IMG/VR virus record: IMGVR_UViG_3300022697_000367
Span: 1 to 38,835 of that record
DNA length: 38,835 bases
Reading direction: 5' to 3' (one strand)
DNA from: a virus
Lineage: Duplodnaviria > Caudoviricetes
Under the pieces are notes generated by a model that was not told the DNA's origin, did not search any database, and saw nothing but the letters and a program-made list of their open reading frames with translations. Of the stretch, positions 10,808 through 38,709 are shown piece by piece. A program made the translations under genes and the position numbers. Every line of letters starts with the position of its first letter. Positions within the stretch are counted from its first letter, which is position 1.

Positions 10808-11097
10808 TGAAATTCTCAAAACTCAGTGTGGGTATTCTTGTCGTTTTATCGAGACGGGAATTGGACCGCGTCGGGATTCTAAAAGAAATGAACAAAAAGA
10901 CCGGTCGTGAGCCGTCCTTAAGCTCTCTCTTCACGTCTTTGCCCCAGTTGCTGAAAACGGAATTGATCTCCGTCCGGTCGGACCGTAGCGCTGGGTTGAT
11001 GGGAGGAGTCGTTGAATACTACGCAATTACCGAGCGGGGGCATCAAATTTTAAAATCAATAAAATCTGGATTACTGAAACGGGGGAAAATAGGTTGA
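10807..11097 (+). CDS. PadR-like winged-helix regulator
   Basis: SLFTSLPQLLKTELI...YYAITERG pattern. Confidence 0.75.
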   Translation: MKFSKLSVGILVVLSRRELDRVGILKEMNKKTGREPSLSSLFTSLPQLLKTELISVRSDRSAGLMGGVVEYYAITERGHQILKSIKSGLLKRGKIG

Positions 11098-12146
11098 ACC
11101 AATTAACGCTGAACTTCGGAGATATCGCGTTAAAGCGCGTCGGGCATGGGTTTGAAGCTGGCCACAAAATGGCCTGGCTGGTGGAAAATATCTGGGCGCA
11201 AGCGGGAACGGGGATACTTGCCGGACCGCCGAAAACCGGAAAGACCTGGTTGATCATCGACCTCGCGGTTTCCATCGCCTCCGGGACTCCGTTCCTGGGA
11301 AAGTTCCCGTCAACCCAAGGCCCGGTGATTATCTATTCGCCCGAAGGTCCTGAAAGTTGTTTAGACGATAGAATCCGGCAAGTGGCGGCTCGGCGCGGCC
11401 TGGATCACACCGAACTCGAAATCTACACAATCAAAGCGCATGACCTGGCCCTGGATGTTGCGACTGACCAGCGAACGATTATCCAAGCCGTTGAATCTAT
11501 CCGGCCTGCCCTCGTTATTTTTGATCCCCTTGCTGAATGCTTTAAGGGCGATGAAAATAGAAGTGATGACGTGAAGGTTGCGACAAATTTTTTAACGAAT
11601 CTAGCCCGTCATCACGGAACCGCCTCCATTATCACGCATCATATTGTCAAGACAGCAGGCGGTAAGCAGGCGGGAAATCAAATGCGCGGATCAGGCGCAT
11701 GGTATGCGTTCGGCGACTCCTATCTTTTTCTCGATCCATTGAAAAATGAAAAGATTCAAATGAAAGTTGTTCAGCGTAATGGCAAACGCGCCGACACATG
11801 CATCCTGGAACTTTCCGAACAAGATTCCGCCACATCCTACTCCGTCACTCACGGGCAGAATGAGGAACCCAAAAAGGAAGACCTGGGGAATCTCATTCTT
11901 AAGCAACTCCTTAAATCAGAGTTACCTATGAGCCAGAGAGACCTTCGTCTGCGGTTGGGCGGCTCTAACGGCAAATATAACGGGGCATTGACAGAGTTGA
12001 ATAAAGCCGGATTGATCAGCAATATCGATAAGGTGGGCTGGGAGTTGACCGAAAATGGAAAGAAAACCGCCGAGGACCTGAAAGGCGATCCGGTCCGCCA
12101 TTCGCCTATAGGCACAACCCGGACCGGACCGGTCGAAAACCCATGA
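11094..12146 (+). CDS. AAA_25 RecA/RepA-like ATPase (helicase-like) with C-terminal wHTH
   Basis: WLVE..W, Walker A GPPKTGKT, LVIFDPL, DEN, HH..K, RGSG motifs. Confidence 0.88.
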   Translation: MNQLTLNFGDIALKRVGHGFEAGHKMAWLVENIWAQAGTGILAGPPKTGKTWLIIDLAVSIASGTPFLGKFPSTQGPVIIYSPEGPESCLDDRIRQVAARRGLDHTELEIYTIKAHDLALDVATDQRTIIQAVESIRPALVIFDPLAECFKGDENRSDDVKVATNFLTNLARHHGTASIITHHIVKTAGGKQAGNQMRGSGAWYAFGDSYLFLDPLKNEKIQMKVVQRNGKRADTCILELSEQDSATSYSVTHGQNEEPKKEDLGNLILKQLLKSELPMSQRDLRLRLGGSNGKYNGALTELNKAGLISNIDKVGWELTENGKKTAEDLKGDPVRHSPIGTTRTGPVENP

Positions 12147-14981: not shown

Positions 14982-16474
14982 ACCCGCAAGAGCTTAATAA
15001 ATTAAAAGAAGCCGGGATTCTTCTCCCCTACCAGCAAAAATGGGTTCAGGATAAATCAAAAATCAAGATCGCGGAAAAATCGCGCCGCATTGGTTTGACC
15101 TGGGCAGAGTCCGCAGACGATGTGCTTCACGCTTCGTCTAATGAGGGGTCTGACGTTTGGTATATTGGTTATAGCAAGGACATGGCCCTGGAGTTTATTG
15201 GAGATTCTGGCAACTGGGTTCGGCATTACAACTTTGCGGTCAGTGAGATGGAAGAGGTTCTAATAGAAGATGAGAATGAAGACAAGGCCATACTTTCTTA
15301 CAGGATAAAATTCGCATCCGGTTATCGCATCACGGCGCTTTCGAGCCGCCCGACCAACCTGCGCGGGAAAAAGGGGCGCGTGGTCATTGATGAAGCCGCA
15401 TTCCATGATGACCTCCCTGGGTTGCTCAAGGCGGCCATCGCGTTTCTCATGTGGGGCGGTGATGTCCGAATCATAAGCACCCACTTCGGTGATGACAATC
15501 CCTTCAATGATTTGATCGGGGAAATAAAATCCGGCAAGAAAAAATACAGCCTGCACCACATAACTTTCGATGATGCGCTAAAAGACGGACTTTATAAACG
15601 TATCTGCCAGGTCCTAAAACGCGAATGGTCCGAAGAATCGGAAGCTCAGTGGAGGCAGGAGATGATCGACCTCTACGGGGACGATGCGGACGAGGAGCTT
15701 TTTTGCATTCCCTCTAAAGGCTCTGGGATTTACTTTCCCCGCGCCCTGGTGGAATCCTGCATGTCCGATGAAATTCCCGTTCTCACCTTTAAATGTAAAC
15801 CGGGCTTTGAACTACTACCCGATCAGGTGCGCTTTCAAGAGGCGCAAGACTGGTGTGAAGAACATCTAAAGCCGATCCTCGATGAACTGGATCCCCACTT
15901 CAAAACTTTTTTCGGGGAAGACTTTGGGCGGTCCGGCGACCTCAGCGCTATTAAGCCGTTGCAGGAGTTGCCTTCGCTTTTATACCGGGAAATCTGTTTG
16001 ATTGAATTATCCAACGTCCCCTTTAAACAGCAAGAGCAAATTTTGTTTTACCTGGTAGACCGTCTTCCCCGGTTCACGGGCGGCGCTTTGGACGCGCGCG
16101 GCAACGGTCAATACCTGGCGGAAGTCGCCATGCAACGTTACGGCGAGTCGCGGATCCATCAAGTCATGCTTTCCCTTCAGTGGTACGCCGAGCACATGCC
16201 GAAGTACAAGGCCGCGTTCGAGGATAAATCCATCCTGATCGCAAAAAGCGCGGATGTTTTGAATGACCATCGTGCCGTCCGTATGGAAAAGGGTGTGGCG
16301 AAAGTCCCGGAAGGAAAAAAGACAAAAGGCAAGGACGGCAGTCAGCGTCATGGAGATACAGCCATCGCCGGAGCGTTGTCCTGGTACGCGGTCAACGAAA
16401 TCGACGGCGGGGAAATTGAATATCAGTCCACCGGCGTAAAGCGGGAAGCCATCTCTTCAATGAGTAATTTTTAA
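14978..16474 (+). CDS. Terminase large subunit (Mu gp28-like)
   Basis: LLPYQ, EKSRRIGLTW, VIDEAAFH, G.DFGRSGD, HGD.A.A. Confidence 0.96.
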   Translation: MNPQELNKLKEAGILLPYQQKWVQDKSKIKIAEKSRRIGLTWAESADDVLHASSNEGSDVWYIGYSKDMALEFIGDSGNWVRHYNFAVSEMEEVLIEDENEDKAILSYRIKFASGYRITALSSRPTNLRGKKGRVVIDEAAFHDDLPGLLKAAIAFLMWGGDVRIISTHFGDDNPFNDLIGEIKSGKKKYSLHHITFDDALKDGLYKRICQVLKREWSEESEAQWRQEMIDLYGDDADEELFCIPSKGSGIYFPRALVESCMSDEIPVLTFKCKPGFELLPDQVRFQEAQDWCEEHLKPILDELDPHFKTFFGEDFGRSGDLSAIKPLQELPSLLYREICLIELSNVPFKQQEQILFYLVDRLPRFTGGALDARGNGQYLAEVAMQRYGESRIHQVMLSLQWYAEHMPKYKAAFEDKSILIAKSADVLNDHRAVRMEKGVAKVPEGKKTKGKDGSQRHGDTAIAGALSWYAVNEIDGGEIEYQSTGVKREAISSMSNF

Positions 16475-17958
16475 TGGCCACTAAAGCAAAAAAACCCTCC
16501 AGTAAAAAGGCTAAAGCGGATACGAATGAAATTTCAGCCGTCGCGTCCGAGGATCTTTTTGAAACATTCCTCGGAAACCTTTTACCCAACCCCGACCAGG
16601 TAGTTGACCGGGAATCGCAAGGATTGGGCCTGCAGTTGTACGAGCAGATGGAGGATAAGGACGGCCACATTGCCACGGTTATCCAGACGCGCAAACTGGC
16701 TGTCATTGGCAGGGAGTGGGAAGTCCTGCCCGCTTCAGACAGCGCTGAGGATGAAAAGAAGGCAGAATTTGTCGAGCAGGTTTTTAAGAAGATGAGTTTT
16801 GATGCGGTCCGCCTGGCGCAGATGGACGCGCTCATGAAAGGCTTCGCGGTCTCGGAAATCATTTGGGAGCTATCCGAAGGGCAAATCTGGATCAAGACCT
16901 TCAAACACAGAAAGCCGTGGCGGTTTGTTTTTGATGTGGATCGTCAGCTTCGCATGCTGACGGACCAGCAAATGGTTGAAGGTGAAAAAGTCCCGATGGA
17001 CAAGTTCTGGATTTATACCTTTGGCGAGCGTTATGAAAACCCTTACGGAAAACCGCTCGGACAAAAACTGTTCTGGTCTTACCTGTTTAAGAAAAACAAT
17101 ATTAAGTGGTGGGCGATATTTAATGAAAAATTTGGTTCGCCGACGCCTGTCGGGAAGTACCGGCCTGGGACCCCTAAATCTAAACAGGATCTTCTTTTAA
17201 GCGCTATTAAATCCATGCAACAGGAAACGGCGGTCGTGATTCCTGATGACATGGCGATTGAGTTTTTAGAGGCGGCCCGGAAAGGTTCTTTCGATACCTA
17301 TAAAGGATTCCTGAATTGGTTTGAAGAACTGCAGAGCAAAATTGTTCTGGGTCAAACTCTAACGACCCAGCAGGGTGAAAACGGAGCCCGGTCCCTGGGC
17401 GAGGTTCATGATGAGGTACGCCAGGACATTCTAAAGGCCGATGCCGACAGCCTGATGGAATCTCTCAATGATGGCCCGGTCAAGCTTCTTGTCGATTTAA
17501 ACTTTCCCGGAACCGTGGAATATCCACAAGTCTGGATCCGAACGGAATCAGAGAAAGACCTCAAGCCCCTTGCCGAACGCGACAAGCTCATCACTGAAAT
17601 GGGATTTGAGCTTGATGAGCAATACATAAAAGACACCTACAGCGTCGAGGTGAGACGAAAAAATCAGCCTAGAGAAAACCCTGATCCCGATAAAAGTGAA
17701 TTTGCGGAATCTGACGACCAGGACAATCTGGATCCTTTCGTCAACCGGCTGTTAAAGGAAGCCGGGCAGGACGCGTTGATTGACCCCATTAAAAAACTTC
17801 TGGATGAATCGGAATCGCTGGAGGAATTCCGCGACAACCTGGCAGTCGCCTTCAATGATATGGACGTGACTGACCTGGGAAATATTATTCAGCTTGCGTT
17901 GCAGGCGGCGGAACTGGCGGGCCGGTTTGAAGCTTTACCGGGGGAGGAAAAAGAATAA
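16474..17958 (+). CDS. Portal protein (DUF935, Mu gp29-like)
   Basis: W..F.EKFG.P...GKY, SK.VLGQTLT, G.VH.EVR.DI..AD. Confidence 0.95.
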   Translation: MATKAKKPSSKKAKADTNEISAVASEDLFETFLGNLLPNPDQVVDRESQGLGLQLYEQMEDKDGHIATVIQTRKLAVIGREWEVLPASDSAEDEKKAEFVEQVFKKMSFDAVRLAQMDALMKGFAVSEIIWELSEGQIWIKTFKHRKPWRFVFDVDRQLRMLTDQQMVEGEKVPMDKFWIYTFGERYENPYGKPLGQKLFWSYLFKKNNIKWWAIFNEKFGSPTPVGKYRPGTPKSKQDLLLSAIKSMQQETAVVIPDDMAIEFLEAARKGSFDTYKGFLNWFEELQSKIVLGQTLTTQQGENGARSLGEVHDEVRQDILKADADSLMESLNDGPVKLLVDLNFPGTVEYPQVWIRTESEKDLKPLAERDKLITEMGFELDEQYIKDTYSVEVRRKNQPRENPDPDKSEFAESDDQDNLDPFVNRLLKEAGQDALIDPIKKLLDESESLEEFRDNLAVAFNDMDVTDLGNIIQLALQAAELAGRFEALPGEEKE

Positions 17959-19172
17959 TGGCTCTGGCATTCACAAAACTCCCATTCACAGAGGCCAGCG
18001 ATTTCCTGCGTCAGAAAGTCAGGCTTCCAACCCAAAGCTGGAGGGATATCCAGCGTGGAATGCACTCGCAGGCGTTCGTCATCGCCGGGGCCATGAAAAC
18101 CGAATTGCTGGAAGACATGCAGTCCGCAGTCCTCAAGGGAATTGAGCAAGGGACCACTCTCCAACAATTCAAGAAGGATTTTAACGGCATCGTTAAAAAG
18201 CATGGTTGGACCTTCAAGCAGGATCCGGGTTGGAGAGCGGGTGTGATTTACAACACCAATATGCGCACCGCTTTTGCGGCGGGCGCGGAAGCGCAAATGC
18301 AACGGACGAAATCCCGCCGACCCTATGCCCGGTACATCGCAGGTTTGTCGGCGGAACCCCGCGCCGAGCACCTGACTTGGCATGGAACCATTCTGCCACT
18401 CGATCATCCCTGGTGGTCGACGCACACGCCTCCCAACGACTGGGGCTGTAAATGCAAAAAGGTGAGCGTGTCCCAGCGTGAATTGGATCGAGACGGATTG
18501 GAAGTTTTAAAAAACGCGCCGGACAACGGATCGCGGCAAGTCACGGATCCGATCACCGGTAAAAAACAAAGCCTTGAAAACGGTCTGGGGTTGAGTTGGG
18601 ACTACAACCCTGGGCAAGCGGCATGGGGTCAGCAATTTGCAAAACAACTGGCCGACAAATTAGTCTCCGGAAAACTAGTGGATATGGATAGCCGGGGACC
18701 TGGGGACTTTAATCGGCCTGCCAGCGTGTCTGTTGATTCGGCAAAAGCCACACCGGTCAGCCGCACTAAATCAGAAAACGAATTAAGGCAAGTGTTGAGG
18801 GATTCTATTGGCGGTGAGGAAAAGACATTCATAGATCCATTGGGCGAGTTTGTGAACGTCAACCAAGGCATCGTCGATCACATCCTGGAAAAACCACAAT
18901 CCCGGTTCGACGGTCGAGAGCAGTTCTTCCCGTTGATTCCTGAAGTCATTGAGGACCCCTTTGAAGTTTGGGTAGGGTTTGCCAGAAGCGAAAAAACCGG
19001 TCAGGTATTTTTGCGCAAGCGGTATATCAAATTCATTCAGTTAGACAAAAAAAGGACATTTGGTTTGATTGCGGAAGTCAGGAACGGGATGTGGGTTGGT
19101 TTCGACTTTTTTAGAGGTCGACCTACAGCGGCGAAAAATTTAAGGAAGGGATTGTTGGTATGGGGAAGGTAA
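17958..19172 (+). CDS. MuF minor head protein with C-terminal PBECR2-like nuclease domain
   Basis: MuF motifs IYNTN.R.A, R.EH..WHG, PPN.WGC.C, WDYNPG; C-terminus R..F.PLI.EVIEDP.EVW...RKRYI...R.G.LVW.R. Confidence 0.9.
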   Translation: MALAFTKLPFTEASDFLRQKVRLPTQSWRDIQRGMHSQAFVIAGAMKTELLEDMQSAVLKGIEQGTTLQQFKKDFNGIVKKHGWTFKQDPGWRAGVIYNTNMRTAFAAGAEAQMQRTKSRRPYARYIAGLSAEPRAEHLTWHGTILPLDHPWWSTHTPPNDWGCKCKKVSVSQRELDRDGLEVLKNAPDNGSRQVTDPITGKKQSLENGLGLSWDYNPGQAAWGQQFAKQLADKLVSGKLVDMDSRGPGDFNRPASVSVDSAKATPVSRTKSENELRQVLRDSIGGEEKTFIDPLGEFVNVNQGIVDHILEKPQSRFDGREQFFPLIPEVIEDPFEVWVGFARSEKTGQVFLRKRYIKFIQLDKKRTFGLIAEVRNGMWVGFDFFRGRPTAAKNLRKGLLVWGR

Positions 19173-19292
19173 ACGGCTTGCCTGTGGACTCTCACGCCGA
19201 CCACGGCACCCGCCGCAACGTATCGGAGCGTGGTCCACGTTGTGCGAGGTTTGAACGATGTTCGACATTCGGGATGCCAGCCCCGAACCTAT
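19173..19292 (-). ncRNA. Candidate structured ncRNA convergent on muF
   Basis: Dense complementary segments directly downstream of a near-consensus minus-strand promoter; 3' end not defined. Confidence 0.55.
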
Positions 19293-19298
19293 GAAAAA

Positions 19299-19327
19299 AT
19301 TATACCTCGAAAGCCCGTTTTTTTCAA
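19299..19327 (-). promoter_or_regulatory. Antisense sigma70 promoter
   Basis: Minus strand TTGAAA (19327-19322), 17 bp, TATAAT (19304-19299). Confidence 0.75.
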
Positions 19328-19339
19328 TTCGGCGAATTT

Positions 19340-19470
19340 GAGGCAAGGAAGGGATTAAATTTCGGCGGAATTGGCATTTAACGACCATTTAAAAGTTAAA
19401 AACAGTTGGAAAATCGACCCTTAGGCCGCGTTCAGGGGAAAACGGCTTAAAACGCGAATTAGGGCCTCAT
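19340..19470. other. Candidate strong gyrase site (SGS-like)
   Basis: Non-coding tract spanning the genome midpoint (~19406) with short A/T tracts alternating with GC blocks at roughly helical spacing. Confidence 0.55.
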
Positions 19471-19495
19471 TCGTAAACTGGAGAATTTGAAAGTT

Positions 19496-19969
19496 ATGGC
19501 GGGACCGGGATTCACAATCGAGATCGACGACAGCCGGTTGAAAACTATCCTGAAAAAGCTGGATAAGAAGGTCCGGAATTTAAAACCGGCCTTTGAGGAA
19601 ATCGGTGAATTGTTGGTCACCTCGATAACAAAAAACTTTGAGGTCGGCGGTCGGTACAGCGTTCCGGGTACCTGGCGTGGAGGGTCAAACAAGTGGCAAC
19701 CCTTGAGCCCAGCGACATTAAAAAGAAAACGCGGTAACAAAATTCTAATTGAAACAACAAACTTACTGAACTCCATCAACTGGCAGGCTGACATCGATTC
19801 GGTGGAAGTGGGAAGCAACCGGGTCTATGCCGCGATCCATCAGTTCGGTGGCAAGGCAGGGCGTGGGAGAAAAGTGACGATTCCCGCCCGGCCCTACCTC
19901 GTGGTTCAGCAAGAAAATCTGGATGAAATCACCGACATCCTCGGGGATTATCTGCTGGGAAAAATTTAA
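19496..19969 (+). CDS. Virion morphogenesis protein (Mu G / gp31-like)
   Basis: W.PLS.AT, L..T..L.NSI, VGSN.VYAAIHQFGG, IPARPYL. Confidence 0.92.
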   Translation: MAGPGFTIEIDDSRLKTILKKLDKKVRNLKPAFEEIGELLVTSITKNFEVGGRYSVPGTWRGGSNKWQPLSPATLKRKRGNKILIETTNLLNSINWQADIDSVEVGSNRVYAAIHQFGGKAGRGRKVTIPARPYLVVQQENLDEITDILGDYLLGKI

Positions 19970-37938: not shown

Positions 37939-38709
37939 ATGCGTAGTTTTATTGGATGGGTTGGTGGAAAATCCCGCTTGGCCGGGGACATCGTTAAACT
38001 CTTTCCCGAACATAAAACCTATGTGGAGGTGTTCGGCGGCGCTGGATGGGTAATGTTTAAGAAAGATCGAGAAGCCAGCCAGGTTGAAGTTTACAACGAC
38101 CTGAACGGCGCCCTGGCCAACCTTTTCCGCGTGGTGAAGCACCGGCCATCGGAGTTGGTCGAGGCGTTGAATTTGGTCCTTTATTCTAGGGAAACGTATT
38201 ACAGGTTTTTGAAAGAGATCGATCACCCTGGTGAGGATGAAATCCAAACAGCGGCCAGGTTTATTTATTTAATCAGGAATTCATTTGGATCGCGCGTGGC
38301 AAATGGATGGGGATATGCTAAGACTCGAAAGCCACGTACCATTACGGACCTCGCGTTTTTAAATGAAATTCAGGAGCGATTGAAATCAGTTTTCATCGAC
38401 AACCGTTCTTTTGAAAAAGTGATCAGTGCCTTCGACTCCAGGGACACTCTCTTCTACCTGGATCCACCGTATTGGATAGTAGGGGATAAGTTATATCAAC
38501 ATTCGCTTTCCACGGCTGAACATGAGAAGTTAAGCAGAGTTTTGCAGGATATTAAAGGTAGGTTTGTCCTTAGTTATAATGACGTTGCTCACATCCGTGA
38601 TCTTTACCGTGGTTTCAGTATTAAAGTCACTAAGGAAATTCATTATTCCCTGAATAATCAAAGGGATACTGCACTGAAGAAATCAGAGATTTTAATCACG
38701 AATTATTAA
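37939..38709 (+). CDS. Dam-like (D12 class) DNA adenine methyltransferase
   Basis: W.GGKS, EVFGGAG, EVYND, FYLDPPY, LSYND, E.LI.NY. Confidence 0.95.
   Translation: MRSFIGWVGGKSRLAGDIVKLFPEHKTYVEVFGGAGWVMFKKDREASQVEVYNDLNGALANLFRVVKHRPSELVEALNLVLYSRETYYRFLKEIDHPGEDEIQTAARFIYLIRNSFGSRVANGWGYAKTRKPRTITDLAFLNEIQERLKSVFIDNRSFEKVISAFDSRDTLFYLDPPYWIVGDKLYQHSLSTAEHEKLSRVLQDIKGRFVLSYNDVAHIRDLYRGFSIKVTKEIHYSLNNQRDTALKKSEILITNY

Follow-up and report, generated by a model that had tools for sequence, protein, structure and literature searches.

The window analysed here is the whole of the virus record IMGVR_UViG_3300022697_000367 (IMG/VR; Duplodnaviria, Caudoviricetes; 38,835 bases), a Mu-like phage in which a Pfam scan identifies a Mu transposase, an AAA protein, Gam, GemA, Mor and a portal protein. 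Its muF gene (17958..19172, plus strand) encodes a 404-aa minor head protein with a C-terminal PBECR2 domain, and a noncoding RNA (ncRNA) of about 120 nt is predicted directly behind it on the minus strand (19174..19292). In this paper we describe this pair, its occurrence in related loci and its possible function. The muF product matches Phage_Mu_F and PBECR2 in Pfam as well as phrog_220 (minor head protein and DNA pilot). The gene is coupled to the upstream portal gene (16474..17958, plus; PF06074), and the next late gene is G (tail completion/neck; 19496..19969, plus; PF05069, phrog_26), which begins with an ATG at 19496. The closest named relative, locus L230, lies in a Nitrospinaceae metagenome-assembled genome and encodes a MuF protein 74% identical to that of the window, and because of this relative the host of the phage is probably a member of the Nitrospinota.

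A preliminary description of the window, made by a model from the sequence alone, had correctly named G as the next gene and had noticed a PBECR2-like C-terminal extension of about 130 aa on muF. The profile search that it proposed places the MuF domain at aa 53-167 (18114..18458, plus; PF04233, E 1e-15) and PBECR2, a predicted BECR-fold RNase, at aa 282-402 (18801..19163, plus; PF18810, E 5e-22), the latter with 78.8 bits against a curated cut-off of 27.1. Besides this cut-off, PF18810 is characterized by a His in the N-terminal helix, a Ser or Thr in the C-terminal strand, a BECR fold and RNase activity. The putative active-site residues are H308, R320, D383 (Thr in most homologues) and R396, and H308 is indeed located in the N-terminal helix (residues 35-42 of the structural model). 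At position 383, however, the window has Asp (19104-19106) and not Ser or Thr. Among 119 RNA-bearing homologues this position is Thr in 87, Asp in 19 and Asn in 8, and the Asp or Asn of the window and its relatives possibly represents a variant active site; H308, R320 and R396 are kept in 96%, 100% and 99% of these loci, respectively. The best VIA-align neighbours of an AlphaFold2 model of the last 135 residues (pLDDT 88.8) are CdiA-CT, colicin E5 and colicin D, whose Z scores are weak (4.2-4.7; 3.9-4.7 for the top six, which include BrnT). Foldseek returned nothing at E<=0.001, a PDB sequence search gave no significant relative (best E 0.22), and PADLOC found no match. Fusions of PBECR2 to MuF were described by Iyer et al. 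2017 (PMC5512222), who consider them to be probably packaged and injected and, in the part of that paper covered here, suggest mRNA or crRNA as targets and RNA binding by inactive versions.

The preliminary description also reported a GC-rich tract of about 120 nt after the muF stop, which is accurate for 19180-19219 (GC 0.725) and not beyond it (0.5-0.55), and saw no credible small open reading frame (ORF) there. Both ORFs over the tract are broken in relatives: a 44-aa plus-strand ORF (19160-19294) meets an early stop in L001 and L164, and an 82-aa minus-strand ORF (19388-19140) is interrupted in L230, L164 and L001. Neither has a match in PHROGs.

Fold, strand and promoter of the RNA

Scans of viral, metagenome and genome collections yielded at least about 300 homologous loci, with PBECR2 present in 59 of the 72 MuF C-termini scanned first. 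Filtering and de-duplication left 172 downstream regions, 81 of which were aligned by a sequence-only hidden Markov model. Covariation was measured in the 74 best sequences by a structure-blind G-test with average product correction, against 40 tree-aware null alignments. Eight pairs covary at E<=0.05, three of them in a hairpin designated P2, three in a loop-loop kissing helix, one in a hairpin P1 and one closing the P1 loop. In a second, independent alignment of 62 sequences made with MAFFT, 82.3% of the cells of the fold are paired, compared to 32-54% in slid controls, and 25 of 26 pairs show double changes; shuffles, a control that ignores relatedness, reached the observed fold in 0 of 500 cases on four measures and in 1 of 500 on a fifth. 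The kiss is paired in 95.5% of cells, with double changes in all five of its pairs. The covariation comparison proposed in the preliminary description has brought out a conserved motif of two hairpins joined by a loop-loop kiss, and the alignments give good support to its being a real RNA motif behind PBECR2.

In the window, where all RNA coordinates are on the minus strand, the core of the family (19180..19251) matches our covariance model R1 with 39.5 bits (E 0.002; the window is among the 62 seeds). Homologue covariation supports hairpin P1 (19180..19207), which pairs GCCGUGG (19207-01) with CCACAGGC (19187-80), and hairpin P2 (19215..19245), which pairs 19245-37 with 19221-15 and has a 3-nt bulge, GAU. 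Inside the P2 hairpin the homologue alignment places a mini-stem, P3 (19225..19236; 19236-34 with 19227-25), with the loop CCACGC, and in the covarying kissing helix (19193..19232) CACGC (19232-28) pairs with GCGUG (19197-93). The window RNA belongs to an extended subfamily (17 sequences) with an added 5' hairpin, P0 (19267..19288; 19288-81 with 19274-67, loop UGGC at 19279-76), which is restricted to this subfamily and shows double changes in six of its eight pairs. P1 is paired in 95% of cells in this subfamily, with double changes in six of seven pairs. The extended fold as a whole is 87.2% paired, with double changes in 23 of 29 pairs; its kiss is only 58.8% paired owing to a misregister by MAFFT. 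A 3' tail, GCCG (19174..19177), is complementary to the P0 loop and would form a second long-range pairing, cognate combinations scoring 11.3 and non-cognate ones 9.2 (0 of 10000 permutations; 22 sequences, kinship uncorrected). The 5' end of the RNA at 19292 is taken from the -10 box and the 3' boundary of the fold from the tail pairing. Single-sequence folding of the window tract is no better than that of shuffles (z -0.1 to -0.7 in four folds).

All pairing and promoter strings quoted in the preliminary description occur at the positions it gave. Three of its pairings have homologue support, namely cacgc/gcgtg (the kiss), caacgt/acgttg (P2) and ttcggg/cccgaa (P0). The gtggac/gtccac helix is matched in score by 69 of 500 shuffles (34.8% paired in the core set, in an uncertain register) and a proposed pseudoknot of 19205-11 with 19272-78 by 88 of 500, and both were rejected; gaccacg/cgtggtc is incompatible with the homologue-supported fold. 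P1, P3 and the pairing of the P0 loop with the 3' tail are additional to its list. Its wider proposal, a promoter-driven structured minus-strand RNA tied to PBECR2, finds good support in the comparative evidence, with a kissing-hairpin knot in place of the fold it had proposed.

Wobble pairs, which it had called mixed evidence for the strand, favour the minus strand in the family as a whole, with 127 G·U cells versus 44 on the plus strand. A structural descriptor scored at least 70 on the minus strand in 95 of the 172 regions, on the plus strand in 12 and in 3 after shuffling. The predicted sigma-70 promoter, TTGAAA-17-TATAAT (19299..19327, minus), agrees with the consensus at 11 of 12 positions. 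The window holds 2 promoter-like sites where 2.1 are expected, so that the count alone is at chance level, and we take this promoter as real because it is conserved in homologues, in which the columns upstream on the minus strand read TTGACA-17-TATA(A/T)T. Scored with a fixed sigma-70 matrix, the minus strand reaches 10.7 bits versus 3.2 for the plus strand, 2.8 for shuffled sequence and 2.4 at +300 nt, and the minus-strand score is the higher of the two in 76 of 78 loci. In 72 of these 78 the modelled 5' end, which was placed with knowledge of the promoter, is 3-8 nt away from the -10 box. Of 23 loci of the extended subfamily, 22 have their best -10 box at a distance of 123-145 nt from the stop, several of the boxes scoring weakly. 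The late mRNA is complementary to the RNA in its intergenic part, and for the extended subfamily the end of the fold coincides with the muF stop codon. Hairpin P1 of the phage RcapMu seemingly overlaps the stop of muF. A general intrinsic terminator for the RNA was considered and rejected, an A-run terminator being present in only 11 of 119 loci.

Association of the RNA with the PBECR2 domain

Searched against 243 sources, R1 gave 96 matches at E<=1, and 95 of these follow a PBECR2 gene and lie on the minus strand (62 from the seed set and 33 from outside it, including some near-duplicates). The comparison with muF genes lacking PBECR2 that the preliminary description had suggested was clear-cut, with 0 matches in 50 such loci; in 9 of 12 short-MuF controls the next gene follows within 25 nt. 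In seven loci with intervening genes or insertion sequence (IS) elements the RNA is retained 155-1578 nt from the stop. In 35 loci with the RNA between PBECR2 and G, RNA identity tracks that of PBECR2 (rho 0.39, partial 0.38; 0 of 500) and does not track that of gene G (rho 0.09; 139 of 500). DNA patterns that start from the RNA gave one locus in the strict form and 38 and 4 in looser forms, and 11 copies passed the model at E<0.05. The flank contains PBECR2 in ten of them; the eleventh (L323) is apparently identical with the L233 locus, whose domain lies farther out than the flank. Thirty whole genomes contained 20 matches, four of them new, with two behind PBECR2 and two (L367 and L379) without an intact PBECR2 gene; the RNAs of the latter two retain fold and promoter.

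R1 misses the RNAs of a Lys-type clade and some extended RNAs, and these were classed by the descriptor, by a general kiss test or by eye; it has no match in the L230 genome at E<=0.001 and none for RcapMu or phage MMP17. The Lys-type clade (L040, L062, L064, L066, L068, L071, L082, L288, L296, L357) has Lys...Arg/His instead of the His, and its RNA is a variant with a covarying kiss of its own. Several of its loci have an A-run after the stop, likely a terminator on the minus strand.

By these means 180 loci were sorted, with 136 classed as RNA-bearing, 19 as RNA-less (with a coupled next gene) and 25 as unclear. Of the 136 RNA-bearing loci, 133 retain the putative catalytic set; of the other three, one has a frame break (L214) and two were missed by the pattern (L288 and L296). 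Of the 19 RNA-less loci, 16 have lost the set. A single clade accounts for 13 of these losses; RNA-less loci fall in seven lineages of the tree, and the His/Arg/Lys set is lost in five of them. Cultured phages checked afterwards follow the same pattern. JBD25 is RNA-less, has a 1-nt gap and is without the Lys/Arg/Thr set, and Mu is RNA-less with F and G overlapping. In RcapMu, RR1-B, Riverbug, MMP17 and Lsp-JY19 the residues are kept and the spacer contains fold and promoter. These phages were all judged by eye, save for Riverbug (E 0.3).

Several loci contain more than one copy. L149 (1762-2057) has, besides its own RNA, a further copy with the same sequence as the L167 RNA, although the two domains are only about 26% alike, and each copy has a promoter; L086 (1908-2081) has two RNAs in the reciprocal arrangement. 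In L183 (1477-2468) two PBECR2 cassettes are each followed by their own RNA, with an IS in muF. These second copies, found in few homologues, are diverged, have their own promoters and do not form a tandem array; by analogy they resemble the toxin-immunity cassettes and orphan immunity genes of polymorphic toxins. A long inverted repeat and a duplicated promoter separate the L149 copies, and L294 seemingly has two Lys-type RNAs just after the muF stop (by eye). At L367:1440-1610 and L379:1450-1680 (G019:C43), two RNA copies flank a gene pair that we take to be HicAB-like. One of the two is preceded by no more of a PBECR2 gene than its final codons, and the other follows two CRISPR-like repeats, presumably of type I-E, inserted in a gene G remnant. 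An ORF that we assume to be RelA/SpoT-like is inserted between muF-PBECR2 and its RNA at L233:3269-3985.

Predicted function and relation to known systems

We consider it somewhat better than an even chance that the kissing RNA, transcribed from its convergent sigma-70 promoter, binds and inhibits the MuF-borne BECR RNase, that is, that it is an RNA antitoxin. Binding and inhibition are suggested by co-loss, by co-evolution and by the orphan copies. MuF-PBECR2 would be made late, packaged and injected, as the MuF literature implies. Because the promoter requires only host polymerase, the RNA would be made in lysogens and in freshly infected cells, and, once folded, would act in trans as a subtype-specific inhibitor, possibly by mimicking the substrate. 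It would shield the producing cell until lysis, render lysogens immune to the injected RNase and allow only a brief attack in a new host. Of the roles offered in the preliminary description, the orphan second copies and cassette pairs make antitoxin or immunity the best fit, and antisense silencing fits worse because the element lies outside the ORF and is kept past insertions of 0.15-1.6 kb.

A number of observations count against an RNA antitoxin. The window has Asp at 383 where the family has Ser or Thr, the fold matches of PBECR2 are weak (Z<5; nothing significant in Foldseek), and the catalytic roles of the His/Arg/Thr set are putative, being read from conservation. Twenty-five of the 180 loci fall in neither RNA class. 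L113 and L221 keep His and Arg yet are RNA-less, as is L239, which keeps His and Arg and is without the Thr only. The Lys-type catalytic rule was drawn up after the alignment had been seen. A pure antitoxin does not allow an active domain to lack its RNA, and it predicts intermediates in which an inactive domain still has its RNA, of which there are 0 clear cases among 136 loci. Without a general terminator, read-through into muF is possible. The RcapMu homologue is not in a list of 422 small RNAs (sRNAs) of R. capsulatus SB1003 (PMC5546546), as looked up by sequence motif and by presumed nearby locus tags. In L230, whose protein is similar, the kiss is imperfect and the R1 match weak (19 bits), and the minus-strand RNA itself is a likely prediction drawn from comparative sequence.

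The RNA could instead be a cofactor or dedicated substrate of PBECR2, bound or trimmed by it, with the ribonucleoprotein or the processed RNA as the effector, for example as a decoy against host RNA-based defence. Co-loss and co-evolution are predicted equally well on this account, which is also consistent with the lack of a clear inactive-domain locus with RNA among the 136, with a 3' end that could arise by cleavage where a terminator is found in 11 of 119 loci, and with the suggestions in PMC5512222 (in the part covered) that mRNA or crRNA is targeted and that inactive versions bind RNA. We nevertheless regard it as unlikely, since foreign-subtype copies with their own promoters (L149, L086) and RNAs without an intact PBECR2 gene (L367, L379) make more sense as immunity, and the alignments contain no unpaired variable guide segment. 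Where a toxin-antitoxin (TA) system is of type I, a convergent small antisense RNA is found at the 3' end of the toxin gene, and a comparable arrangement here, in which the convergent promoter silences leaky muF or late transcription in the lysogen by antisense or interference and the fold merely stabilises the RNA, would account for the orientation, for the strong conserved promoter, for the lack of a general terminator and for loss of the element once the domain is harmless. We rate this as distinctly unlikely, as the fold stops at the stop codon in the extended subfamily, the element is kept up to 1.6 kb away behind inserted genes, the tertiary kissing pairs are under strong selection and foreign-subtype copies could not silence through complementarity. 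The target in the window would, moreover, be a 404-aa virion protein, overlap with the ORF is not needed, and selection acts on the tertiary fold, all of which differ from type I systems.

Two further explanations concern the tract itself. Its location inside the late operon would suit a plus-strand cis element of the late mRNA (processing, attenuation or translation of gene G), cut or bound by PBECR2 in the manner of RegB in T4. Watson-Crick covariation is strand-symmetric, the 44 wobble cells favour the plus strand, and L010 and L044 score high in the descriptor on that strand only; the 127:44 ratio of G·U cells, the 95:12 ratio of descriptor scores, a minus promoter abutting the 5' end of the motif and an RNA that does not track gene G make such an element improbable. 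The tract could also be a tiny immunity peptide gene or chance GC-rich sequence. Single-sequence folding (z about -0.4) and ORFs of at least 30 aa that can start near the stop in 82 of 119 loci are in keeping with this. It is hardly credible, as kissing loops differ by single bases (6 versus 7 nt) and the covariation far above controls, together with the breakage of both small window ORFs in close relatives, already largely refutes it.

Among known systems, an RNA antitoxin at this locus would be closest to type III TA systems (ToxIN, CptIN, TenpIN), in which a knotted RNA is likewise paired with an RNase; inhibition by direct binding is predicted here. By the definition of a type III antitoxin in the parts of PMC12283969 and 10.1101/2025.04.15.648962 covered, a pseudoknot is expected, and the covarying loop-loop pseudoknot provides one, but in a different topology, that of kissing hairpins. 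The module lacks three defining type III features. The toxin is a BECR/PBECR2 protein by Pfam, fused to a virion protein, and not ToxN-like; the RNA is single-copy (one R1 match in the window) and not a set of tandem repeats; and it lies downstream, convergent and under its own promoter, whereas type III antitoxins are upstream and co-transcribed with a terminator between. AbiF/RCd22 and AvcID, as far as their descriptions were covered, also join a prophage-borne toxin to a structured ncRNA, which counteracts the toxin in cis as well as in trans. AbiF, however, is related to Cas13, and its RNA, with two motifs and a terminator, is upstream and co-transcribed; the locus has no Abi_2/AbiF match in Pfam and no abiF match in Rfam.

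The MuF polymorphic toxins (Jamet et al. 2017, PMC5576092, in the part covered) share with the window a MuF N-terminus with a C-terminal toxin domain, a gene beside the portal in the head module of a temperate phage, a partner right behind the toxin gene, and extra cassettes and orphan partners. A small immunity ORF follows 89.4% of the 191 toxin genes in that study, whereas here the partner is noncoding and on the opposite strand and there is no conserved immunity ORF. PBECR2 in fusion with MuF is common to our locus and Iyer et al. (PMC5512222), whose covered text speaks neither of immunity nor of a partner RNA (the main text does not contain the word 'noncoding'). Rfam 15 gave only two chance matches in window positions 18900-19700 (E 0.85 and 8) and none in 10 homologous loci. 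The openly available literature covered contains no report of an RNA with PBECR or MuF. No PBECR or MuF term occurs in six supplementary files of PMC10690425 other than files 1, 2 and 4, which may hold the motif as an unnamed candidate; the main-text passages of Weinberg 2017 covered have no Mu or kissing motif, and a 2026 preprint on BECR classification (10.64898/2026.08.28.747851), in the part covered, mentions no RNA antitoxin or ncRNA. We conclude that this ncRNA-RNase module is real, widespread and, it appears, undescribed.

MuF proteins with a C-terminal extension and no immunity ORF were previously unexplained, and the RNA family supplies the missing partner. The activity of PBECR is only predicted, the PBECR literature covered names no regulator, and here a widespread ncRNA family appears and vanishes with the putative active site. 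More tentatively, with a probability that we put a little short of even, this may be the first polymorphic-toxin system with an RNA immunity factor, a subtype-specific kissing-loop RNA against a virion-delivered BECR RNase; phages and hosts would collect foreign copies of the RNA as orphan immunity. Such RNAs would then form a new antitoxin class, with no relation to ToxIN, AbiF or AvcID, that extends across many bacterial phyla. If true, RNA antitoxins would be extended to the BECR fold and to virion-delivered toxins. With the module one can examine directly whether phages inject an RNase and how they guard against it, and it is easily tested in the cultured phages Thermus Riverbug, RcapMu, Leptolyngbya Lsp-JY19 and Meiothermus MMP17, with JBD25 and Mu as RNA-less controls.

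Other features of the window and related loci

In six loci (L043, L049, L053, L054, L069, L073) MuF carries another type of long C-terminal extension and a small ORF comes next, which is a classical toxin-immunity layout, and these loci have no RNA match; Pfam has no match to this extension in the three scanned. L383 and L386 (G048, G039) contain stand-alone degenerate PBECR2-like ORFs with neither the His/Arg pattern nor an RNA match. Between the antisense promoter and gene G the window has an AT-rich stretch of 165 nt (19330-19495) with no folding signal. A similar stretch, possibly a late promoter region, is found in many homologues ahead of the protease gene. Elsewhere in the window, Pfam identifies an AAA_25 ATPase before mor (11094-12146) and a D12-class adenine methyltransferase at the right end (37939-38709).

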